DNA from: Stegostoma tigrinum
Taxonomy: Eukaryota
Direction: 5' to 3'
Assembly: GCF_030684315.1 (NCBI RefSeq)
Contig: NC_081387.1
Coordinates: 23,802,647-23,866,646, forward strand
Length of the DNA stretch: 64,000 nucleotides
The translations under genes and the position numbers were made by a program. This document shows, one piece after another, positions 1,886 through 25,300 of the stretch (positions within the stretch are counted from its first letter, which is position 1; each line of letters starts with the position of its first letter). The notes below the pieces were generated by a model, which saw only the letters and a program-made list of their open reading frames with translations, was not told the DNA's origin and searched no databases.

Positions 1886-3055
1886 TGCAGCTCCTGATGT
1901 CTTCACAGCCTTGGTTAAAACATTGACAAAACAGTTGAATACCAGGTGTCAGGTGAAAGTGACAGCCCTTGATATCAAGGTTGCATTCGACCAAGTGTGG
2001 CATCAAGGAATCCCAGCAAAGCTAGAATCAATGAGAACCTGGGGGCAATCTCTCCGGTGTTTGGAGTCATACCTGACACACAGGAAGATGGTTGCGGTTG
2101 GTGGAAGTCAGTCATCTCAGCTCCAGGACATCTCTGCAGGAGTTCCTCAGGATAAATGTCCTCGGCCTAACCATCTTCAGCCACTTTATCAATAACCTTC
2201 TCACCATAAGGTCAGAAGTGGGGATGTTCACTGATGATTGCACAATGTTCAACACCATTCACATCTCCTCTGATACTGAAGCAATCCGTGTTCAAATGCA
2301 GCAAGATCTGGACAATATCCAAACTTGGGCTGACAAGTGGCAAGAGACATTCGCACCACACAAATGCCAGCCAATGTCCATCATCTAACCATTGCCCCTT
2401 GACATTTAATGGTGTTGCCATCACTGAATCCCCCACTATCAACATCCTGGGGGTTACCATTGACCAAAAACTCAACTGGCATCACCACATAAACACAGTG
2501 GTTACAAGAGCAGATCAGAAGCTATGAATACTGAGGCAAGTGACACACCTCCTGACGTCCCAAAACCTGTCCCCAATCTACAAGGCCCAAGTCAAGAGTG
2601 TGATGGAATAATCTCCACTTGCCTGGATAAGTGCAGCTCCAACGACACTCAAGAAGCTTGACACTATCCAAGGCAAAGCAGCCGGCTTGATCAGCATTAC
2701 ATCCACTCCCTCTACAACCAACGCTCAGTAGCCACGGTGTATATTATCTGCAAGATGTGCTGGAGAAATTCACAAAAGATCCTCAGTCGGAATCTCATGA
2801 CCACTTCCATCTATAAGGACAAGGACAGCAGATAGATGGGAACGCCAACACCGTCATGTTCCTCTCCAAGCCACGCACCATCCTGACTTGGAAATACATC
2901 ACCGTTCGTTGCTGGGTCAAAATCTTGAAATTCGTGCTCTAATGGCATTATGAGTCAATCCACAGCAGGTGGACTGCAGCAATTTAAGAAGGCAGCTCAG
3001 CGCCACCTTCTCAATGGTAGCTAGGGATGGATAAGAAATACTGGCCAGCCCATGA
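1886..3055 (+). mobile_element. L2/CR1-group LINE 3' fragment (3' tail interrupted by the ERV)
   Basis: TALDIKVAFDQVWH..SAGVPQ..MFTDDC; same family as 18630-21087. Confidence 0.88.
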
Positions 3056-3781
3056 TGTCAGGTTTGTTTTCAGAGACCCCGACGGACTTGCTGCAATAAC
3101 AAGACACTGACCCGTTTAGAAAAACACAAATCCTTTATTCCCAAGCAAGTACAAGCTGTGGAGAATCACTGTACTCAACCCAGTACAGAGTGCTGTGTCT
3201 CGTAAGTAATTCTCCCCGAGCAGCGGACAGTCCCTGCTTTTTATACTTTACTAAGCACATAATACATAAAACAATTTCACATCACACAATGACATGATAC
3301 ATGAAACAATTATTACAACAGACAAAGACAGGATACCAAACAATTATTACATCAAGAACATAAAAGACCAGGATCTAGTATCGATTGTTCGTGAAGTGGC
3401 TGCTAATGGCAGGAGGCGATTTCAAGTTGTTATCAGGACAGATTGCGATTTCAAGTTACCAATGTGCCTGGCTGGAACAAAGTCAGTACCCTGGCCCCTT
3501 TGTCAGAGACAGAAGTTACATACTTCAGAAGTCTCACACCTTTACAAATGTTCCTCGCTTGACCTTATTTGAGACAGTTTAATTCTAATTTTATTCAGTC
3601 AGGAAGCTTAAGACAGTGTCTGCATACCAATGTGTGGGAAGATAAGGAGTTACAAAGTCTTACACTGAATTCCTCGCTGGGCAGGAAGCTTCAGGGCAGT
3701 GCCTGCATGCCTATGTGTAGGCAGATAAAGGACATTAATTTATAGAAGTATAGAAATCAATGGGATGTTATCACATTAACA
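3056..3781 (-). repeat. ERV 3' LTR
   Basis: TGT...ACA termini, directly after the PPT. TATAAAA near 3240-3246, AATAAA at 3134-3139, and a duplicated about 50-bp U3 motif (near 3600-3650 and 3684-3732). Confidence 0.85.
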
Positions 3782-3800
3782 TCTCATTCCCTCCTTTTAT
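3782..3800 (-). promoter_or_regulatory. Polypurine tract
   Basis: ATAAAAGGAGGGAATGAGA between the env stop and the LTR TG. Confidence 0.9.
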
Positions 3801-5201
3801 CATTTCATGATAACCAATAATGGGGCCGAGAGGGGATCTGCTAACCTGTCAAACACAAATCTGCCGCAAGGGCTCAGACATGCCATAAATGTACAGCAGG
3901 CAGCTATGACAACCACGAGAACAACTAACCCAAGCAGCAAATATGAGCCCCAAGAACCGCCCATAAGCCATCCCAACAAACCCTCTCCAGGGCGGGGTCC
4001 CTCACTGTGCTGTTCCAACTGCCCCTGTATGGCTTGGATAGCCTGGGTAATGTTATAGGACTCGTTGGTGACGTGGGTAATGCACTTGTCCCCGATAATA
4101 GTGCATACTCTCCTTGCTGAGCCAGCTGATAGTCCACTGCATACCGGGTTTGGTGAGCATAGAGCCGAAGTTTGGCTAAGTCGTGGTTGACTGCCTCCAA
4201 TGCCGTCATTGTGCTGTTTCCCAGGGCGGTGAGTCCACTTACAAGGTAATTTTGAATTTTCTTTTGTGGCCACCACCCCAGGGGAGCTTCCCAAGCCAAC
4301 AGTTCCCAGGAAGCCGTATCCCAAGGAACAGCCCAAGGCAATCGGGTTCTGCCATGCAGAGCAAAACTCCCGGCTCATGAAGCGTGTGACAATCCGCCAT
4401 CGAGTTTGTGCTTGTTGGGGACAAGGGACCGTGAGGAGCCCAATGGTCCCAACAGCAAACAGCATCGGCAGGGCTGGAGCAGCAGTTGTGAAGGCCCTGT
4501 TAAAGAGGAAAATGAATCCCTTTTTAGCCCAGTAGCAGGTAACAGACTCACGTATTTCTTGATAGCTATGCCAGGAGGACTGACCCTTATGTGGATGGAA
4601 ATTTGCGGAGTTAAATAGAAATGACCCATAGTCCATTCCTACATGAGTGCCACTGCAATCCCCACAAGTCCACTGTATGCCCGGGGTCACAGTTATTGGG
4701 TTAGATTTCAAGCAGGGGCAGTTCAACAATCCGCCTCTAGGGGTGCAATTTCTCTTTATGTACCGATGGGGCCAGGAAACATTATGGGGGTGATTAGTGA
4801 CTAGAGCATGCACACAACAAGCCCCAGTTCCATTAAAGCAAAACGGATAGCTGTTGGGACCTGTACAGTTAGCCCTTTTTTTCCCATGCCCAGGTCTAGT
4901 GTCCCCACAACCAGGGAGCCACTAACTACCAGGTTTACACATGTACCCTGCACACCCCTCGTCCAAGTTCCCCTCTCCCCTCGGCAAGGCTTACCGGAAT
5001 ACTCTATTTCATAAAGCTGACTAGGGTTCTAGGTAGGTGTTGCCACAAATAACACTTCTACAGACCTGCTAGTGGGTAACATACTGTCTCGTTCCCATGC
5101 AGCCGGGTGTGTGTTCTATAAAACAGATTGTCCAGCTGGCCATGCATGGGCAGAATAACACTCAGTCCAATGGTTAACTGCACGCTGATGGGGAAATCCA
5201 T
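3800..5201 (-). pseudogene. env: ERV env (frameshifted)
   Basis: Signal-like MDFPISVQLTIGLSVILP from ATG 5201; Gly-rich fusion peptide; HR1/ISD (QTRYAVDYQLAQQG); CTIIGDKC; TM LLLGLVVLVVVIAACC. Stop near 5058 and frameshifts near 4260 and 4110. Confidence 0.9.
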
Positions 5202-6870
5202 TGTTTACAGTCACTAAGGTGGATCCAGCGATCCTGTCCTTTAACTTTAAGGGCTGTTGGAGTCTGAAGAAGCACTTGGTACGGTCCTTTCCACCTTGGT
5301 CCAAGCTTGGAGCGACCCCAGTCCCGGACAAGTACAAAATCTCCAATCTGCGGCCACGAAGATCGATCCTGAATTTCGAGGTCTTGTTCCGGTGTCTGCG
5401 GAGGCAGTCCGAAGGCGCACTTCACCTGCGAATGGAGAAACTTTCAAGATGATGTTAGTTGTTGGAAGTACATTTGCATTTCTTCTCCCATCACATTTAG
5501 GTCAGTTTTGGTGGGTGGGCTGGTATTGGCATCCCATGGTGTTCTGCTGTGTCGGCCATAGACTATTTCCGCTGCTGAGATCCCAGTAGTAAAATGGGGT
5601 GTTATTCGCATGTGATACAAGGCTAGTGGCAAAACCTTTAACCAATTCAGGCCGGTTTCTGATGTCAACTTGGTTAGTTTAGTTTTAAGTGTTTCATTAG
5701 CCCTTTCCACTATCCTTGCCGCCCGAGGGTGGTTGGCACAGTGGAATTGTTGTTGGATGTTTAATGTATCACACAGTTCCTTATTAATTTTCCCTACAAA
5801 ATGAGGGCCGTTGTCCGAACTAATTTCTCACGGTACTCCAAACCTCAGTATTATTTCAGTTAAAAATAGTTTTACTACGGTTGAGGCTTTGTTATTTGTC
5901 ATTGGGAAAGCCTCTATCCACCTACTGAATACATCTACAATGACAAGACAATATTTGTAACTGTTTACGAGCAGCAATTCAATACAATCTAGCTGAATGC
6001 ATTCAAACGGTCCACCTGGCAAGGGTGTTTTTCCTGGTGAGCATCTCACCCCGACCCACATTGTTTTTCTGGCATGTGGGACATGATGCTATACGAGACT
6101 GGGCTGCCTCAGTCAGTCTGGGGTGCCACCAGGCACGGACCATAATACCACTCATTCCCTCCTTGCCAAGGTGGGTGTCAGAATGCAGACAGTCAACAAG
6201 CAGAGGTAACAAAGTATCAGATACACACACCTGGCCAACTGGGGTAACCCAAAGGCCTCAGGACGCAGAATGCAACATCCATGCGCCTTCCAAATATTCT
6301 TTTCAGAAGCAGGGGCGTCCCCCTGTAAGTGCCGAACAGTGACCATATCTGGCATGCCCATCTTGTCTGAAGGCGTGCGATTGACCACCTGCTTGTTCAC
6401 AGAGGGTATAATAAAAATTTCATCTGCAGCAGCCTGTTTAGCAGCCAGATCAGCCTGAGCATTTCCCCCGAGTAACTATAGAATCAACAGAGGCATGGGC
6501 AGTGCATTTGATAATAGCCAATTGTTTAGGGAGGAGGATTTCCTGGAGAAGGTTTTTAACAGACAGGGAATTGTGGATGGATGTACCTGAGGACGTTAAG
6601 AATCCACACTGGGACCAGAGTGGGGAGTGGGGCATCAGTAAGGGCCGGGCGGGGAGAGGTTAGAAATTGGTTCCTCAGCAGGCAGTCATGTGGGGGTTCA
6701 CTCAGAAATGTGGCTGGGTTAATAGTGGAGCAGGAAGAGATAAGGAACAAATCACAGGAAGAATTTGGGAACAAGGGGGGTAATCCCTGAGCTACAGTGT
6801 CCAGGCAAGTGGAGTAGTAGGCAATCGGTCATTATAATTCAAGTTTAAAGGGCCTATTGTAAACCTGTCA
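5174..6870 (-). pseudogene. pol: ERV pol 3' part: connection and RNase H fragments, integrase
   Basis: PIAYYSTCLDTVAQGLPP, TINPATFL..HDCL, GFLTSSG, HHCC zinc finger (HSDTH..CPTC), IQLD..SDNG..ERAN (DDE), PRWKGPYQVLL (GPY/F). Multiple frameshifts and deletions. Confidence 0.92.
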
Positions 6871-8444
6871 TTAAGGTGGACAAGTCCCCATGACCGGATA
6901 GGATCTATCCCAGGTTACTGAGGGAAGCGAGAGAGGAAATAGCTGGGGCCCTAACAGATATCTTTGCAGTGTCCTTCGACACGGGTGAGGTCCCAGAGGA
7001 CTGGAGACTTGCTAATGTTGTCCCCTTGTTTAAGAAGGGCAGCAAGGATAATCCAGGTAATTATCGACCGGTGAGCCTGATGTCAGTGGTAGGGAAGCTA
7101 CTGGAGAAGATACTGAGGGGTAGGATCTATTCCCATTTGGGAGAAAATGGGCTTATCAGTGATAGGCAACATGGTTTTGTACAGGGAAGGTCATGTCTTA
7201 CCAACGTAATAGAATTCTTTGAGGACGTGACAAAGTTGATTGATGAGGGTAAGGCTGTAGATGTCATATACATGGACTTCAGTAAGGCGTTTGAGAAGGC
7301 TCCCCATGGCAGGCTGATGGAGAAAGTGAAGTCACATGGGGTCCAGGGTGTGCTAGCTAGATGGATAAAAAAACTGGCTGGGCAACAGGAGACAGAGGGT
7401 CGTAGTAGAAGGGAGTTTCTCAAAATGGAGAACTGAGACCAGTGGTGTTCCACAGGGATCTGTGCTGGGACCACTGTTATTTGTGATATATGTAAATGAT
7501 CTGGAGGAAGGTGTAGGTGGTCTGATCAGCAAGTTCGCTGATGACACTAAGATTGGTGGAGTAGCTGATAGTGAAGGAGACTGTCAGAGATTACAGCAGA
7601 ATTTAGATAGACTGGAGAGTTGGGCAGATAAATGGCAGAAGGAGTTCAATCCAGGCAAATGCGAGGTGGTGCATTTTGGAAGATCAAATTCAAGGGTGAA
7701 CTATACAGTAAATAGAAAAGTCCTAGGGAAAATTGATGAACAGAGAGATCTGGGTGTTCAGGTCCATTGTTCCCTGAAGGTGACAACACAAGTCAATAGG
7801 GTGGTCAAGAAGGCATATGGCATGCTTTCCTTCATTGGGCGGGGTATTGATTACAAGAGTTGGCAGGTCATGTTGCAGTTGTATAGGACTTTGGTTCGGC
7901 CACACTTGGAGTACTGTGTTCGGTTCTGGTCGCCACATTACCAAAAGGATGTGGATGCTTGGAGAGGGTGCAGAGGAGGTTCACCAGGATGTTGCCTGGT
8001 ATGGAGGGTGCTAGCTATGAAGAGAGGTTGAATAGATTAGGATTATTTTCATTAGAAAGACGGAGATTGAGGGGGACCTGATTGAGGTCTACAAAATCAT
8101 GAGGGGTATAGACAGGGTGGATAGCAAAAAGCTTTTTCCCAGAGTGGGGGACTCAATTACTAGGGGTCATGAGTTCAAAGTGAGAGGAGGAAAGTTTAAG
8201 GGAGATATGGGTGGAAAGTTCTTTACACAGAGGGTGGTGGGCACCTGGAACACATTGCCAGCGGAGGTGGTAGACGCATACACGTTAGTGTCTTTTAAGA
8301 TATATTTGGACAGGTACATGGATGGGCAGGGAGCAAATGGACACAGACCGTCAGAAAATAGATGACAGGTTAGACAAAGGATCTTGATCAGCGCAGGCTT
8401 GGAGGGCCGAAGAGCCTGTTCCTGTGCTGTAGGTTTCTTTGTTT
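6871..8444 (+). mobile_element. 5'-truncated CR1 inserted in ERV pol
   Basis: RT motifs (YMDFSKAF, GVPQGSVLGP, KFADD), 3' tail, candidate TSD ctgtca at 6865-6870 and 8445-8450. Confidence 0.95.
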
Positions 8445-8942
8445 CTGTCAGTTTCAGTATGATGTCTGTGCGTGTGTAAGTGATGTAGTACCACACGGGG
8501 TAGGACAGCTTCAATACCCACTCTGCATGGTGAATGCGATCAGTCAGGAGGAAGGGCAACAGGGTTAGTACACGAAAGGGATCTCTGCTCTGTGTCATGT
8601 CTCATTTGCACTGTCACCATATCCCATTTGCCAAACTGAACCAGGGAGGCAGTATGGGCATTAACATTGCAATGGTTTCCTGAACTTAGAGAGAGAGTGG
8701 CATGAGGGGGAAGAAAGCTCTAGTTCGTTTAAAAAATTACCAAGCAAGAGTTGCGTGTTTTAGAGATGCGTGTGTACAGCACCATCAGTCAACAACTAGT
8801 CAAGAATTATCGTGTAAATTGACCAAATTATACATGCTATAAAAATTAACCAAATTTACCAAACACAAAAATCAGAAATTCTTGGTAATAAAAAGAGAAT
8901 TAATGTTGCACGTCCAGCGACCCTTCCTCAAAACAGGAATGA

Positions 8943-9512
8943 ATGAATGGATGGTGGTCCCTAGGACCCAGTGGAGCCACAGCTGTGGGAAAAACAGCAA
9001 GTTTCAAGAGGTATCCATTACCTGGAGAAGTGGTTGTGAATTTCAAATCAATAGCGTGTGCCATTGATGGAAAGGCGTTCTCCTGCCTTAAAGCTGCCTG
9101 GGGGGGAGGGTGGAATTTCACGGTGCTGGATATCTCGAATGGTTTCTGGTCTGTCCCGGTTCGGCAGGACCAGTACAAATTCGCATTTACTTTTAAAGGA
9201 CAACAGTACACGTGGAGTTGTCTGCCACAGGGTTTCCATTATAGCCCCAGCATTTTCCACCAGTGTTTGACAGACTGTTTAAAAGATTGCAGTGAGCCAC
9301 ACAGGGTTGTACAGTACGTGGCCGACATCCTGTTGTTCACAGACAATAGTGAGGAACATGGCCCCCTACTGAGTGAGTTGTTACAACTCCCGTACAAGAG
9401 CGGGTTGAAGGTAAACCCTAGGAAGGCACAGATAGGGTTAAGGGAGGTCAAGTTCCCGGGACTGACCCCGAGGGCTGGAGAGCGCAGCATAGATGCAGCA
9501 CAGGCTAAAGAG
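8943..9512 (+). pseudogene. Retroviral RT fragment antisense to the host ERV (spuma/lokiretrovirus-like signature)
   Basis: FTVLDISNGFWSVPV..QYKFAFTFKGQQYTWSCLPQGFHYSPSIFHQ..QYVADILL (YVDD>YVAD)..GLKVNPRKAQ. Confidence 0.88.
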
Positions 9513-10795
9513 AGCTTGGGGGTGGCTTGGTACATTTGAATAGTGCCCAGGATGTAATCTATAAAATCTTCTGGGTTAGTCTTTTCGATCAGGGGCCCTT
9601 GACATAATTAAACACATCTCTTGTGGCTTCCAAGGGGCATAGACCTGCATTGCATTTTGACCCACTTGTGTTGGGTCCGGGTTCGGGACCGTGTGAGTAG
9701 GAATTTGTCGGAGATTTTTCTTACGGGGGTCCTTCTTTAGGGGATTGCTATTCGAGGGTCTTTTCCAAACTCTGTCCTCACATTCACTATCCTCTGCCTG
9801 TGAGTCGGGACTATCATATTCTTCGCTCCTTGTAGAATCACTAGGAAACACTGAACAGGCGCTAGAGGGTCAACTGAACTGCACACGGGACTAATGTTTT
9901 CCCAGGCTTCTCTTATGGGTTTTAAAAGAATCCTGCCATCCCTCCTTTTGTCCACTAATGGTCTGTTCTGAATTCTGTTTCCTGTCTGTTTAGTTTTAGA
10001 CCGAGTACGACAGGAGATAGGGTCTGTACAAGCCGTGGGTTTGTCAGGGGATTCACGTGGGCTGACTACTGAAGGGCTTGGAGATTCTATAGCAGGTTTG
10101 GTTTGGTCTGGTCAGCGTACGGTGGCAGCGATACAGCTATGGGAGATGGCTGGGACTGATGGCAGTGTTGGGGTGCCTGCAGATGTAGGTTGGCCAAGGA
10201 CGGGTAGGGTTGTGGAGGGGGTAGTGGTCCCGATGGGACAGAGGGATGCCTTACCCAGTCCTCCTCGTCTTGCTCACCTGTATCATTAATTTGGAACAAC
10301 ATCGGCACGCCAGATATGTCAGGAGGTACCTCCGATTTTTTGTTTTCTGTCAACGCGGCCTGCCACTCTAGCCCCCGATCTTGTCTCGTTGTTCTCTCTC
10401 CTGCCTTTTTCATTTAACTCTTTCCCTTTCATTCATCTCATGATCCTCACACTGCAGTTTTAAAACTTCCCAAGTTTTAGGTTTCCCCTCGTTATCACAG
10501 GCACTGATCCCTCTCCTGTGCGCATTATCCACCCAACTGGCCAGTTTTGATTTTTCAGTCAGCTCCTCAGCTCTCTTTCACCAGAATGACATTAACCCTT
10601 TCCAGTGTCTCTCCTGCTGTAGTACATAGATCTATATCCCACGTTCCCCCCAACGGCCAATTCTCATTTCCCAATTTTTTGTTTAAGCATGCTGACAGAC
10701 GTCTGTATTGTACTTCATTTTCTGTGTCATCCCGGCATAACCGACGTAAAAGGGGTTCCGACACCCGACTTATCCAGCGCTTTCACTTTTTACTT
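9513..10795 (-). pseudogene. gag: ERV gag (MA, proline-rich region, N-terminal CA; truncated)
   Basis: MA motif NWPLGGTW; PPPQPYPSL and LPPY late-domain-like motifs; CA start VYAPWKPQEM..APDRKTNPEDFIDYILGTIQMYQATP, then cut off. Confidence 0.85.
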
Positions 10796-11152
10796 ATCTC
10801 TATATACTACAGCAGTGTCCTTAGTCTCAACACCCACTTCAGAGTCCTGACCTTCGCGTGGGGGATTCCCCTCTTAACAACCGGTCTAAGGCAGGGTGGT
10901 TGAAACAGACAGACATTGTAACTATTCTATACCTAGGTCTTGTACTAACTCCCCTCCCTTTTCCCAATTGCCCGACACAGGGTTTCACCCCCGGTCACCG
11001 GGGGATCTATCCTCCCAGATTTTAATTTTTTTTTCAGCTACTTGTCCCAGGGACTTTAGCCCCGGCCACCGGGGGAATCGAACCTCCCGGATTTTTGTTG
11101 TTTTTTTTAAGTTACTTGACTCAGGGACTCGAACACTGACCACCGGAGGACA

Positions 11153-11390
11153 CCAACCTCCCGGATTTCTTTACCCAGTTCTACCGGGGGACTCCAACCT
11201 CCCGGATTTCTTTACCCAGCTCCAGTGGGGGTCTCCAACCTCCTCGATTTCTTTACCCAGCTCCAGTGGGGGTCTCCAACCTCCTGGATTTCTTTACCCA
11301 GTTCCACTGGGGGACTCCAACCTCCCGGATTTCTTTTACCAGTTCCACTGGGGGTCTCCAACCTCCTGGATTTCTTTACCCAGTTCCACC
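11153..11390. repeat. 41-bp tandem repeat (about 6 copies) in the ERV leader
   Basis: Unit ctccaacctcccggatttctttacccagYtccastgggggW; related longer units at 10990-11150. Confidence 0.92.
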
Positions 11391-15830: not shown

Positions 15831-16372
15831 CTACCCCTTTCCCAGATCCCGATCTGAGGTGGAGCAGATTTTCAGAAATTGGTTCACATCAAATGTTTGA
15901 AAGAAAGGATAAAGTTTCTCAGTGAATTTATTCCCAGCGAAGGTGTGGAGATGAGACTTGGTGTCTGCGTTGTAAAATGAAATTGTCCCAGACTCATAAC
16001 TGAGATAAATTCCCACCTTCCCAGGGACCTGATCGACACAGAGTGGAGTTTGAGGGATTGAGTTTACATCAAAATTCTCCCTAAACCGCTCAATGGTCCA
16101 GAATCTATTATCTGGGATCAGTCTGACCCAATCCTTCCTCTGTACAGACTCTGAGGCTACTCCCAGAATCCAGCGCTGATTCCCCAGCACCTCCACCTCC
16201 CAGTAATGTCTCCCCGATGTGAATCCCTCTGATCCAAGGGCACAGTCCCAGTTTGAAAACCTCTTCCCAGTGTCAGGGAGACTCCTCCAGGTCCAGGTCC
16301 GTTTCATACTCTTCAGATCCTTCGACACCTCAAGCCAGGAACTTACTGTTTCCAAATCCAGGGTAACAGAGA
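15831..16372 (-). CDS. B30.2 (PRY-SPRY) terminal exon
   Basis: ttctctcccag|TCTCTGTTACCCTGGAT. Encodes VSVTLD...GFTSGRHYWEVEV...GKVGIYLSYESGTISFYNA...FTEKLYPFF; TAG at 15831. Confidence 0.97.
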
Positions 16373-19300
16373 CTGGGAGAGAAAACAGAAATTAGAAGCA
16401 GCCCCTGGGGATGTGTCTGTCTGTATTTGGTGACCTTGGGGGGATATGAGAGTGTGTGGGTGGAATGGTTTGTCTATGCGGGTCAACGTGTGTATGGGCA
16501 TGGGAATTGTATAAGTGTGTGCCAGTGTTTGTGTGAGTGTGTGTTTTTGTGGGGGGGTTCAGTGCAATGAGATGTGAGTGTGTATTCTGCGGTATGGTGT
16601 GGGGAGGCAAGGGGGACATGCGTGTTGGACACAGGAATACAGGTCATCATCATATTGGGAAGTGCACCTTGAGGCAGGCAATAAATGTGATCTTTGCAGT
16701 GATTCCAAATACTACAAAAGAAAAATAATTTTTAAGACTTTCTCTTTTTCAGATAACTGAAGCTACAGAAGACTTTTGCCAACAGCTTTGAATTTCTGAA
16801 TGTCTGCAGACTTTCAACGTCACAACACAGTGATATATGAGGCATTCAGTGATAAAGCTGTGAACTTAAAAATGTTATTTTGTCCTGAGTTTTTCGGAAG
16901 AGAGGTTGTAAAGGCAGAGGTATGAAGTGGCTATGGAAGAAGGCCTAAGTTAACAGTCAGAGGAGGCCTTTAGGTTCTTTGTTACAATAGTAATTTGTTG
17001 TAACAATAGTTGTAGCAATGGAAGGCGAGTGGCCAGTTTTCACAGATCAAGCTTTGTAGCTTTTTTCAGTTGTAGCAGTCAGAAGCTATTTGGGGTTCCA
17101 GAAGAGTTGGAGCTTTAGTAAATGATTTCTAGCTGCTACTTTCTCTGAAATCACTCTTGATGTTGTTTCCTCCTGGACTGGGAACTGCCTGTCAGAGTCT
17201 GCATCTGAATTTACCATTTTTCCAAGGTGTGTACTTATGGGATGTTACTGTATTGGATTAATTATTAATAGGTTAATTATTAATCGGTACCGTATCTATC
17301 ATTTGGTTAAGTTTTCCAATAGTTAAGTTATTCTAAATTTCTCTTTCTTTTGTTATTACTTTAACTGTCATGTTTAAGTAAATTGTGCTTTGCTTAATGT
17401 CAAATAGGTTGCCCATTCACCACCTCTGGAACGTGCACTTCACACCTTCATTTAAAATAAGAAAAAGTGACAGTCTTGGCTACCCTCTTAAAATACTTTG
17501 AGGGGATCTAGTCTGGTTCATAACAAACTGGGGGCTCTTGTCGGGATGTAATTCCATAATTCCAATTTGGGTTTAGGGCTGTTGAACTCAAAGGTGGCGA
17601 GTGGTAGGTGTTAGTGTCTTTTGTTTCAGCTGTTGTTTCAGATGGTTTAAACAGTGCTTTGTGCAGTAATGGCTCTTTCAGTCACTAAGAGTTTTCTGGG
17701 GGTGGAAGAAATGATTTCAGGGGTTTGACAAAAAGTGAGCAAGGTGAAACTGTTGGAATTAGCAGACAAGCAGGAGCTGAGGTTGCCTTTGTGAGAAAAG
17801 GAGAAATAATTATAGCAATAAAATCCGAATGAACTGCAGATGCTGTAAATCAAGAACAGGAACAAAGTTGTTGGAAAAGTTCAGCAGGTCTGGCAGCATC
17901 TGTGAAGTAAAAAACAGAGTTAACATTTCAGGTCCGGTGACCCTTCCTCAGAACTGATGGTGGCCGGGAAACCATCAGTTTATTTGCAGAAAATAGGGAG
18001 GTTGGTGGGGTAGAGAGTAAACGGTAGGATAGAGGACAGACAAAGGAGTTGCTAATGATCAGGCTGGGATGGTGATTAGTTGTTAATGGGGACTGTTAGT
18101 GACTAACAACAGGGGATGTATAATGACAGGCTATGTGATAACAAGGCCTGGTGTGTGGCGTAAGGTTCCGGAACATGGGAGAGTTTAGGCCCTAAAATTA
18201 TTGAACTCAATATTGAGTCCGAATTTCAGAAAGTTTTCTGAAGAAGGGTCCTGACCCGAAACGTCAGTTTTCCTGCTTCTCTGATGCTGCCTGGCCTGCA
18301 GTGTTCCTCCAGCTCCACACTGTGTTATCTTATTTTGTCCTAGGATTTTTTTAAAGAGAGGCTGGAAAGGCAAAGGTGCTGAAGTCAACAATCCGTGGAG
18401 GCCTTTATGTTTTTATTACAACAGTTGTAACAATGGAAAGAGGGTGGCCAGTTCTTACAGATCAAGCTTTCTATATTTTTTAGCTGTAGCAGTCAGAAGT
18501 TGTTTGTGTGACCCTAAGACGGTTAAATAGATCTTCAAACAGATTTAGCAACTCAAGTCTGGGCCTCCGTGAGGTTCTGTAGGCCGTCAGTAGCATCAGA
18601 ATTGTACTCTAGCACAATCTGTAATCTCATGGCCTGCATTTCCCCCACTCAACCATTACCATCAAGCCAGGGAATCAACTCTGGTTCAATGGAGAGTACA
18701 GGAGGACATGCCAGGAACAGCACCAGGAATACCTGAAGATGACGTATCAACCCGGTGAGACCACCAAACAGGACTACTTGCACACTAAACATCATAAACA
18801 GCAAGTGATAGACAGAGCTAAGCGATCTCACAACCAACGGATCAGACATGAGCTCTGCAGTCCTGCCACATCCAGTCGTGAATGGTGGTAGATAAACAAC
18901 TCAATGGAGGAGGAGGCTCCACAAACCTCCCCAACCTCAATGATGGAAGAGCCCAGCACATCAGTGCAAGAGATAAGCCTGAGGCATTCGCAGCAATCTT
19001 CAGCCAGAAGTGCCGAGTAGATGATTCATCTCCATGTCCTCCAGTTATTCCCTTCATAACAGATACAAACTTCAGCCAATTTGATTCACTCCATGCGATA
19101 TCAAGAAACGGTTGGAGACACTGGACACAGCAAAGGCTACCGGCCCTGACAACCTTCTGGTGACAGTACTGAAGACGTGTGCTCCAGAACTTGCTGCTCC
19201 CCGGCCAAGCTGTTCCAGCCCAGTTAAAACACTGGTATCTACCTGACAATATGGATTTTTTAAAAAATTCATTCACAGGATGAGAGCACCACTGGATAGG

Positions 19301-22300: not shown

Positions 22301-25300
22301 TCGATGTTGTGCCGGCCTGTCATACCAATCTGAAGCCCATCTAACCTACACTATTCCATGTACGTCCATATGCTTGTCCATACTCAATGTCAAATTATGT
22401 CCCAGTAACTGGGACTTGCTGGGAGCCATGGGTAAGATCTAATTAAATTACATTTCAAGATATTCCTGAATCTTGCTCACAATTCCTCTGAGAGGGATAG
22501 TTGGAGTCTTGTCATGGCAAATAGTTCACTTATCTGATTTGATTATGTTTCAGAGTTGGTGAGGAGTCACTGTTTGGTTGAATTAAGGACTGGAAGGATC
22601 GGTCAGTATTGTGGGAAGCAGGGTCTTGTTGGAATTCAGCTGATCCATTTGATCAGAGTGCTGTGATTAGACTGAATAGTTCATGCAATCCAGATGCGAC
22701 CTGTCACTGGAAACTTACTGAAGGGGGTTAACAGGAAACAGGTGTGTTATTTCAGTTCTGAAAATATGGATGAAGCAAGCAGCGGTTCTTGTCTATTTTT
22801 CAATGCTTCATTAGTTATTCTGTTGAAGGATCTGCAGCCAAGAAAATTTTACTTATGTGATGGTGATTTGCAATTCTTTCTAAACTAAAAGTAAATGGTA
22901 TCAGAGATAATGGGAACTGCAGATGCTGGAGAATCCAAGATAACAAAGTGTGGAGCTGGATGAACACAGCAGGCCAAGCAGCATCTTGCTAAGATGCTGC
23001 TTGGCCTGCTGTGTTCATCCAGCTCCACACTTTGTTATCCCAAAAAGGAAATGGGTTTTAGTTTCCAATTCTATGAAGGTGACATTTTCTTAAGCATCTT
23101 AAACTCATTTCCTTTAGCAGTAAGTGAAAGTGGCATTTCTGATAAATCATGTGACTAAATGGTTATCAAAGTTACCTGGTAATTGCTAAAACATTCAATA
23201 ATTTGAGTTTTTCTGGACCAGAGAAAGAGAGGTAGAAGCAGGTTCGGTTCTGAGGATCCATTCAAAGTACCTGGAAATAACTCAGAACTTTTCTCTTTGA
23301 TTATTATTGGAAATATATAGATGTGCTAATCAATGGAAAAATGGAGAGATTAATTAATAGAAATATCAACATGCAAATGATGAAGAATGGTGAACATTCA
23401 GAGATGGGGGTGCAGGGAGGGAGATTATAAGGCAGCAGCTATCACTCTGATAGCTCATGACATCAAAGGAAGTGACATCAGGTCACATGACACAGTATAA
23501 GGAATAGCTAACGGAGTCTATACAGATTTCTGTCAGGCCTTTGATAAGGTTCTACATGGTAGGCTGCTTTGGAAGGTTTGATCACATGGAATCCAGGGTG
23601 AGCTGGCAAATTGGATACACAATTGGCTTGATGGTAGGAAGTAGATAGTGGAAGGATGGAGGCTTGTGACTACTGGTGTTCCTTGGGGATCGGTGCTGGG
23701 CCCATCGCTGTTTGTTATCTATATCAATGATTTGAATGAGAATGTACAAGGCATGATTAGCAAGTTTGCAGGTGGCACTAAAATAGGTAGTATTGTGGAC
23801 AGTGAGGAAAGTTATCAGAAATTGCAGCAGGATCTTGATCAGCTGGGGAAGTGGGCTAAGAAACGGCAAATGGGGTTTAATATAGATAAGTGTGAGGTGT
23901 TGCACTCTGAAAAGTCAAATCAGGGTAGGAGTTTCATGGTGAACAGTAGGGCCTTAAGGAGTGTAGTGGAACAGATGGACCTTGGCGTTCAGGTTTATAG
24001 TTCTCTGAAAGTGGAGTCACAGGTAGACAGGACAGTGAAGAAGGCTATTGGTACACTGGACTTCATCAGTCAGGACAATGAGTATAGAAGTTGGGAAGTT
24101 ATGTTGCAGTTGTACAGGACAATAGAGAGGCCACATTTGGAATCTGTGGTCAGCTTTGGTCACCTTGCTGTAGGATGGCTGTTATTCAACTGCAGGAGGA
24201 ATTTACAAGGATGTTGCCAGGACTCGAGGGACTGAGTTATAGGGAGAGGTTGGACAAGCTAGGATCTTTTTCTTTGGAGGATAGGAGACTGAGGGGGGGG
24301 GATCTTATAGAAAAGATTAAGATCATAAAAGGCATAGATATGGTGAATGCACTCAGTCTTTTGCAGAGGGTTGGGGAATCGAGGACTAGAGGGCATCAGT
24401 TTAAGGTGAGAGAGGAAAGAATACATGGGAACCTGAGGGCCAACTTTTTTTTACACAGAGGGTGGTATGCATATGGAATGAGCTGCCAGCAGAAGTGGTT
24501 GAGGTGCGTACATTAATAACATTTAAAAGGTATTTGGACAAATACGTGGATAGGAAAGGTTTAGAAGGATATGGACCAAGGGCAGGCAGATGGGTTTCGC
24601 GTGAAAAAAATATTTTTGTTGGCCTGGACCAATTTGGGCCGAAGAGCCTGTCTCCATGCTGTAGGACTCTATGGTACTACAGAACGATTACAATACGTGC
24701 ACACCCTCAGTCAATAACCTCTTAGTGTATGTACTTTATTTATTGGTAGCTGCCACAGTTCTGTCTGTTTGAGATTCCCCTCTGCTGTCATTGAAATATC
24801 AACACCAATGTTCATTGTATTTTAGCTGTGGTCTGACTACTACCTTGTATAGGTTGAGCAAACCAATCTACTTTTATACCTTGTTTCCTTTTAAATAAAA
24901 GCCAACATTCCACTTGCCTCCCCTATTATTGGCTAAACTTAGGTGCTAGCTTTGTGTGATTGATGGATGAGGATTCCCAAATTCCTCTGTTCCATAGCTT
25001 TCTGCAGTGTTTCCACATTTAAATGATATTCGCTCCTTTATTCTTTTTGTAAAAGTGTCGAACCTCATATTTCCCACATTCCATCTGCCAAGACTTTGAT
25101 CATTTGCTTAACCTGTCTGTGTTTATTTACAGATTCTTTGTTTCATTTCCACGTTTCTCCCCACCTTTGTTTGTGTCATCCACAAACTATGTGGTTGGAT
25201 ATTCACTTGCATCATCAAAGTCATTAAAACTGCACGGTGGCTCACTGGTTAGCACTACAGCCTCACAACACCAGGGGCCCAGGTTCAATTCCAGCCTCGG

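Follow-up and report, generated by a model that had tools for sequence, protein, structure and literature searches.

The element in the window and its copies

The window, by which we mean the whole 64,000-nucleotide stretch of shark DNA that was analysed (G000:C44:23802647-23866646 of a 3.2-Gb assembly), contains a minus-strand ERV at about 3055-11390. It consists of a 3' LTR, env, integrase (IN), RNase H plus tether, a foreign segment, the gag 5' portion and a leader (Table 1). The end of gag, pro and the element's own RT are missing, and pieces of a donor retrovirus stand in their place. An earlier note, made from the sequence alone, had described minus-strand gag adjoining a plus-strand RT, and this was borne out: a domain search of the window found RVT_1 (E 2.5e-23) in the plus-strand frame 8943-9539, and the quoted motifs are present. 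The boundaries proposed there need correction. An RT does lie within the suggested 8450..9540, but only at 9117-9492, and about half of that interval is not RT. The gag/RT join is likewise real, but it had been placed at 9512, and DNA identity to parent gag runs to 9493; the window copy has a private frameshift just after QMYQATP in gag. The foreign segment starts at ~6833 and not at 8450, its block A having later been split by a LINE; other copies run uninterrupted from 6870 to 8445. As this LINE is missing in most copies, LINE 3' transduction was rejected as the source of the insert. The YVAD motif is present in the window, but this decay of the catalytic YxDD is found in the window copy only, and many other copies retain YxDD.

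Table 1. Features of the window and of the locus next to the source of block X. Positions are those of the window unless a contig is given; a point marks features listed with no strand.
Feature	Position	Strand	Remarks
3' LTR of epsilon-like ERV, TG...CA	3055..3786	-	common to parent proviruses
env, broken	3800..5150	-	open frame 3800-4921; TM part in different frame; weak HR1-HR2 match, E 0.033
integrase, broken	5174..6257	-	rve, H2C2, MLVIN_C domains; clusters with parent IN
RNase H + tether remnant, internal deletions	6258..6832	-	the ERV's own pol restarts here
foreign block A, left part	6833..6870	+	donor IN-env intergenic DNA, antisense to ERV
LINE, 5'-truncated, later arrival within block A	6871..8444	+	6-bp target duplication 6865-6870 / 8445-8450
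foreign block A, right part	8445..8490	+	donor IN-env intergenic DNA
block X, leftover of ~1.0-1.2 kb captured host DNA	8491..8936	.	sole non-ERV match G000:C49:7160737-7162362
foreign block B, donor IN-env intergenic DNA	8937..9116	+	variable G run at end
foreign RT fragment, ~125 codons, snakehead-retrovirus-like	9117..9492	+	DNA 89% identical to donor-like C2 provirus
gag/RT junction microhomology	9493..9499	.	4 exact bases, 6/7 matching
gag 5' part, cut in capsid region, broken	9493..10790	-	private frameshift after QMYQATP
leader, 41-bp tandem repeats	10790..11390	-	5' LTR and primer site gone in window copy, kept in others
open frame	15831-16391	-	B30.2/SPRY-like by resemblance
TGF-beta-family gene L194	G000:C49:7170280-7174620	-	~8 kb upstream of X source; strand is that of the donor-sense reading of the insert

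A whole-genome DNA search gave 364 candidate places, of which 40, the window among them, were scored. The gag/RT join is crossed in all 40, with an identity of 82-91% (100% for the window itself). Further copies with the junction, whose existence the earlier note had left to a genome search, are abundant: a 22-nt junction pattern, with up to 2 mismatches allowed, has 182 matches in the genome, and a pattern for the uninterrupted parent gag has 50, with a control of 0 in both cases. The number 182 overstates the number of insertions, because copies have also been multiplied by host duplication. Of 41 chimeric copies examined, 38 have a readable flank, and these represent 27 distinct sites; 11 copies occupy one site and 2 another, because the host has duplicated a block at least 10 kb long. 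This sample is not random, as it combines the 20 top matches with 20 chosen from the pattern list. Target duplications of 4 bp were found in 6 of 24 copies in which both ends could be read (6/13 outside duplicated blocks). Two LTRs are present in most chimeric copies, and in 15 copies the members of the pair differ by 1.4-17.5% (median 8.4%). Finally, assembled contigs from two public sequencing runs span 9493 with at least 31 letters on each side, one listed piece from each; the four runs considered belong to one study, possibly the assembly's own source, and their contigs were left out of the copy-number counts. The junction is thus genuine and no artefact, and the chimeric family has retrotransposed to many separate sites. 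The insertion that was multiplied by segmental duplication is found at G000:C9:1.28 Mb, C10:2.0-4.8 Mb, C12:92.55 Mb and C13:71-84 Mb as well as on small contigs (copies L149-L152, L154, L156-L158, L160, L165 and L166); the duplicated block, at least 10 kb long and 93% identical between C10 and C13, contains repeated exon-like frames.

Two retroviral lineages in one element

Parent loci were found by a search with the RT of a Mustelus protein that is a close IN relative of the window element. The search gave class I RT loci that are, on the RNase H side, up to 91% identical to the window. Eleven parent proviruses were fetched; they have the LTR in common with the chimera and an unbroken gag-pro-RT, with Pfam protease, zinc knuckle and RT domains. 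The chimeric LTR is 73-95% identical to parent LTR pieces, and the 5' part of gag, IN and env are also in common. In a quick RT tree of 63 rows the parent RT falls within a class I clade (support 99) together with REV and mammalian gamma-like rows, and in the IN tree the window IN joins the parent with support 97, the donors being placed elsewhere. An MLVIN_C domain was recognised in the window IN (E 2e-16); the same domain is weakly detected in the row of snakehead retrovirus (SnRV). On these comparisons the backbone is a class I (gamma/epsilon-like) ERV. The term "epsilon-like" is drawn from the host and from a position outside the gamma rows, in trees that held no named WDSV or WEHV, nor named foamy or loki references.

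The donor side was found by a search with the tether part of a database protein (P0002). A provirus on C2, whose RT is 89% identical to the insert (Table 1), continues from RT into tether, RNase H, IN and env, and a similar donor-like provirus lies on C10. Among the scored places there are two long donor-like proviruses at 78-89% identity and one more at 65-71%; no LTRs were recognised for them. Blocks A and B correspond to what lies between IN and env in the donor. The decayed env of the C10 provirus, translated in three frames with stops read as X, gave no match to the Mononegavirales fusion protein (PF00523) that lokiretroviral Env resembles.

What kind of RT was captured can be told from its relatives, its motifs and the tree. 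Its closest database proteins are uncharacterised or labelled NYNRIN-like and come from coelacanth and frogs. Its best PDB matches are foamy RTs (E 2.7e-20), a comparison to be read alongside an RT tree that contained no foamy row. The motifs of the insert are LDISNGFWS, LPQGF and VQYV, the first two matched in SnRV, which according to part of the supplement of PMC7947760 carries LDISNGFWS and LPQGFH; the row P0026, which is SnRV by text match, is 48% identical to the insert RT. In the quick tree the insert groups with the donor-like loci and P0001/P0002 (support 100), outside the class I clade. SnRV itself has no firm placement at the backbone of the RT tree, and the donor IN groups with SnRV at a support of 81. 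The earlier note had pointed to spumaviruses and related lineages such as lokiretroviruses, and with the latter the insert does share the RT motif N-G-F-W (or S-G-F-W; PMC7947760, in the portion available). The loki link was not borne out, and a lokiretrovirus identity was rejected on motifs and tree placement together: the loki RTs in the part of the same supplement that was covered carry CPFG and (L/T)(I/V)(Y/F)VDD, the insert has LPQGF and VQYV instead, and P0113 and P0134, two rows termed loki-like from their motifs alone, lie outside the group with support 95 in which the insert is found. The loki host list, as given in the accessible part of that paper, contains no cartilaginous fish. 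The foreign RT is a non-class-I sequence and, judging by these similarities, most likely SnRV-like. By eye, P0005, a frog Pol in the wider donor group, continues at its C-terminus into a signal-peptide-like stretch and an immunoglobulin-like segment.

RT and IN of the element therefore belong to different clades, the RT going with the donors outside class I and the IN with the parent, and the proposal of a non-autonomous ERV carrying a foreign RT in inverted orientation holds. An AU test on the RT, from which two long rows (P0024 and a piece of L092) were left out, rejects the insert and the parent as a single clade (p-AU 0.003). Since the insert RT goes with the donors, the AU test rejects the common clade and the window IN goes with the parent, a simple local inversion is excluded. 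An own RT that was merely turned round in place, or a chimera of the assembly, has a negligible probability in our judgement: nothing was found in favour of either, the 182 junction matches and 27 sites speak against them, as do the contigs of two public runs across 9493, and a separate own RT exists in the parents and in one intermediate copy (L101).

Intermediates and the route of capture

Several copies differ from the window in ways that suggest a series. In L101 (C54), 1.3 kb of donor sequence replaces ~1.6 kb of gag-pro, and the own RT is kept. Read in donor sense, its insert contains the IN-env region and the start of env, followed by RT, which is the reverse of the viral order. The internal RT/env join of L101 occurs once in the genome by pattern search, and a separate non-ERV source locus with the reordered donor join was rejected because that one occurrence is in L101 itself. 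Within this copy (L101:4565-5480, minus strand) the donor env start is in frame with the donor RT, giving an antisense frame of ~165 codons before a frameshift, and a splice-acceptor-like tract precedes the donor env start. In L095 and L155 the own RT is absent, the insert is trimmed and there is no block X; L186 is a sister deletion that retains 505 bp of RT. Microhomologies of 4-6 exact bases are found at three of the five junctions examined (gag/RT 4, donor/pol in L101 6, RT/B ~4), and the other two show little or none.

Block X is 1.0-1.2 kb long in the fullest copies, such as those of the L030 type, and the window has lost ~560 bp of it. Its one non-ERV match in the genome (Table 1) is 81-94% identical in pieces. 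The possibility that the extra 560 bp are donor gag or env was rejected, as the sequence matches single-copy host DNA. Relative to this source, X has two internal skips of ~150 and ~640 bp; splicing was rejected as their cause, because their ends do not look like those of an intron by eye. A TGF-beta-family gene, which we take to be nodal-like, has its last exon ~8 kb upstream of the source, and no ERV part was found within ~20 kb of this source. Taken together, the structures suggest capture of donor DNA, loss of the own RT, capture of host DNA and trimming, in this order; the order is drawn from nested deletions and structure, the DNA trees being too shallow to resolve it. Separately from this series, 3 of the 37 copies that were read each carry an independent insertion within ~25 bp of block A, namely the LINE of the window (6865-6870), a SINE with a nested LINE piece (L021) and a SINE (L036).

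Our favoured reading, to which we give a probability of roughly 0.6, is that of a chimeric subfamily of a class I shark ERV that took up inverted SnRV-like pieces and host DNA by way of antisense read-through RNA, was spread by helpers, and carries the RT as a passenger. The data show the structure of the element, its parent, the donor-like proviruses, the intermediate copies and the many sites; the steps themselves are a reconstruction. The family would have begun with parent and donor proviruses of opposite orientation, the parent lying inside the donor or next to it, giving a packaged RNA that contained donor antisense sequence. Three jumps during minus-strand synthesis, from parent pol to the donor IN-env region, back to donor RT and on to parent gag, would then have made the first capture, which is the state seen in L101. 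Further deletions would have cost the element its own RT and shortened the insert (L095 and L155, with L186 as a sister), after which ~1.0-1.2 kb of host DNA would have been taken into the insert and, by erosion of this piece, the window state reached. Throughout, co-packaged parent genomes would have been the source of proteins and, through homologous recombination, of renewed gag, IN and env. One insertion would later have been multiplied by host segmental duplication, and the LINE would have been the last to arrive in the window copy.

The earlier note held that ordinary template switching between co-packaged plus strands does not readily explain the inversion. This stands for simple switching between two plus strands, which gives no inversion, but not for classical transduction, in which the packaged RNA, a read-through or nested transcript, crosses a donor provirus in antisense and can yield an inversion. 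A single process, antisense RNA transduction, would account for the donor pieces as well as the host piece, and the reversed donor order demands one backward jump. This extra jump counts against the RNA route, and the microhomologies are equally compatible with DNA repair. According to the part of PMC3187697 available, homologous recombination exceeds the non-homologous kind in frequency by a factor of at least 1000. No nested parent/donor locus was found, the 20-kb surroundings of the C2 donor matching no ERV part. Capture at the DNA level has to be weighed for the same family with the same spread: a break in a parent provirus would have been patched on the chromosome with two donor cDNA fragments by a microhomology-mediated process, or a minus strand would have switched onto donor minus-strand DNA in a mixed particle. 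Such a process permits any orientation and fragment order, suits microhomologies of 4-6 bases and agrees with the lack of a nested source locus, and inversions are known in HIV proviruses (1.3% inversions and 1.3% inversions with deletions, in the portion of PMC9278108 available, which names no mechanism). The later deletions and the host capture with its skips of ~150 and ~640 bp, on the other hand, resemble the same kind of jumping in an element that was retrotransposing, and we regard capture at the DNA level as rather unlikely, if a serious contender.

Spread, the antisense RT and known systems

Because the element is without protease and RT, it would have required a helper. The INs of chimeric copies are interleaved with those of parents, and an AU test speaks against one chimeric clade (p 0.009, 24 versus 9 rows), in an IN tree with short branches from a quick search. 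In 27 copies, IN variants common to two or three chimeric copies have an N/S of 0.15-0.39 versus 0.76-0.77 for singletons (N/S being an uncorrected measure, with singleton values near its neutral level); low values for shared variants are as expected if alleles of the helper were imported. For the copy statistics, copies with common flanks were collapsed to one. Mobilisation in trans with repeated recombination with intact parents is likely on these patterns, and ectopic gene conversion could be an alternative cause of the interleaving of INs. One chimeric copy, L163 (C58:10063139-10073138), lies directly behind a truncated parent gag and is a parent/chimera tandem or recombinant.

The remaining question is whether the foreign RT does anything. 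In 16 copies, private non-CpG substitutions per 100 bp amount to 2.12 in the foreign RT versus 2.16-2.53 in five other blocks (p 0.14-0.94). Private lesions per copy are 0.54 in the foreign RT versus 0.66-0.80 elsewhere, a small gap with no formal test. Block B and RT stand in no fixed frame to each other, the counts being 7, 7 and 13 among the 27 copies read. Other measures differ. An open RT frame is seen in 16 of 29 copies, compared with 24 of 102 control windows (p 0.002), in 18/39 versus 22/103 in a further count, and in 4/12 versus 2/17 when copies were picked on X. Among duplicated copies no block has diverged less than the foreign RT (0.046 versus 0.053-0.092), and shared variants of this RT have an N/S of 0.47-0.53, compared with 0.69 for singletons, in a segment of which the helper has no counterpart. 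These samples were mostly chosen on the RT or its junction, and the open-frame excess is weakened because copies were picked by RT and lesions are shared by descent. Taken as they are, the open-frame excess, the low divergence and the N/S values do not favour a pure passenger. In one pair of copies, L029 (C485) and L149 (C9), the foreign RT differs by 1.6% and the rest by 9-26%, and the tract of similarity ends near the borders of the insert. Conversion or recombination between chimeric lineages is the likely cause; special conservation of the foreign RT was rejected for this pair, private substitution rates being equal across the 16 copies.

An antisense piece could have been kept for its action, through small RNAs or dsRNA against the donor virus or through an antisense RT peptide. 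The 373-bp RT piece is whole in most copies, with X eroding beside it, open RT frames are in excess, and few donor-like proviruses were found among the scored places. Retention of the RT is, however, biased by the choice of copies, the rarity of the donor requires no silencing, and the piece is without the N-terminal part and thumb of an RT. With no deficit of private substitutions, a small gap in lesions and a fusion frame that is not conserved, we hold a retained function to be improbable. More improbable still, in our estimate, is a mobile antisense trap, that is, a defective retrovirus spreading in the germ line whose transcripts run antisense to a rival's RT and IN-env region and contribute to its silencing, the RT piece being under selection and homogenised among copies. 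The foreign RT is probably a passenger, which is a better reading of its sequence than a role.

The chimera resembles several known systems. In recKoRV of the koala, a recombinant of KoRV and PhER, the centre of an ERV likewise gave way to a fragment of an unrelated retroelement, some break points show microhomology, LTRs and target duplications are kept, and the recombinants proliferated in the germ line (PMC6112702, in the portion available). The shark insert differs from it in being antisense, in having two donor pieces in reversed order and a recognisable RT, and in its gain of host DNA; the orientation of PhER in recKoRV is not stated in the accessible text of that paper. The D-type form of ERVK[2-1-LTR] in cattle and the ETn/MusD elements of mouse are likewise defective, with a swapped central segment and the gag and env/pol ends kept, and the accessible text of PMC10924933 draws one pattern for the bovine D-type ERVK, ETn/MusD and recKoRV of a swapped centre with kept ends. 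These forms are mobilised in trans and outnumber the competent ones (85% versus 15% in cattle); for the shark, the pattern matches of chimera and parent are 182 versus 50, a ratio inflated by duplications. The bovine and mouse systems are class II and some are still active, whereas the shark family is an old class I family for which mobilisation in trans is inferred. Harlequin and other mosaic HERVs, also assembled from several donors and re-integrated many times, are attributed to co-packaging and polymerase jumps; in the part of PMC4724089 available, re-integrating mosaics are counted only if all parts are in sense, and most recombinants are within class I or within class II. The shark chimera has its insert in antisense and joins class I with an SnRV-like lineage. 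Cartilaginous fish are known to host epsilon-like as well as snakehead-retrovirus-like (clade Huo) ERVs, the two kinds of parent that the chimera calls for, from the CmiERV lineages of the elephant shark (PMC4422223) and the clades Mu and Huo (PMC6001957), and the accessible portions of these two papers describe no recombinant between the two lineages. In a literature search whose coverage was without most subscription journals and Repbase, no report was found of this shark family, nor of any amplified ERV that carries the RT of another clade in antisense.

The pattern of defective ERVs with a swapped centre, known from koala, mouse and cattle, is thus found in a cartilaginous fish, here with an inverted and reordered insert from a distant clade. 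One assembly retains the parent, the donor-like proviruses, an early intermediate in single copy and the host locus that supplied the second capture, so that the birth of a non-autonomous family can be traced stepwise. The chimera shows that viruses of class I and of the SnRV-like kind came together in the same germ-line cells. Classifiers based on RT would misplace such elements in both clade and strand. Should antisense RNAs be found, one retrovirus family would be carrying a silencing sequence against another.

Elsewhere in the window, the open frame at 15831-16391 resembles an exon for B30.2/SPRY in a gene of the TRIM or butyrophilin-like kind. At 22939-23039 there is a perfect 49-bp inverted repeat with a 3-bp spacer, built from a SINE-like end.
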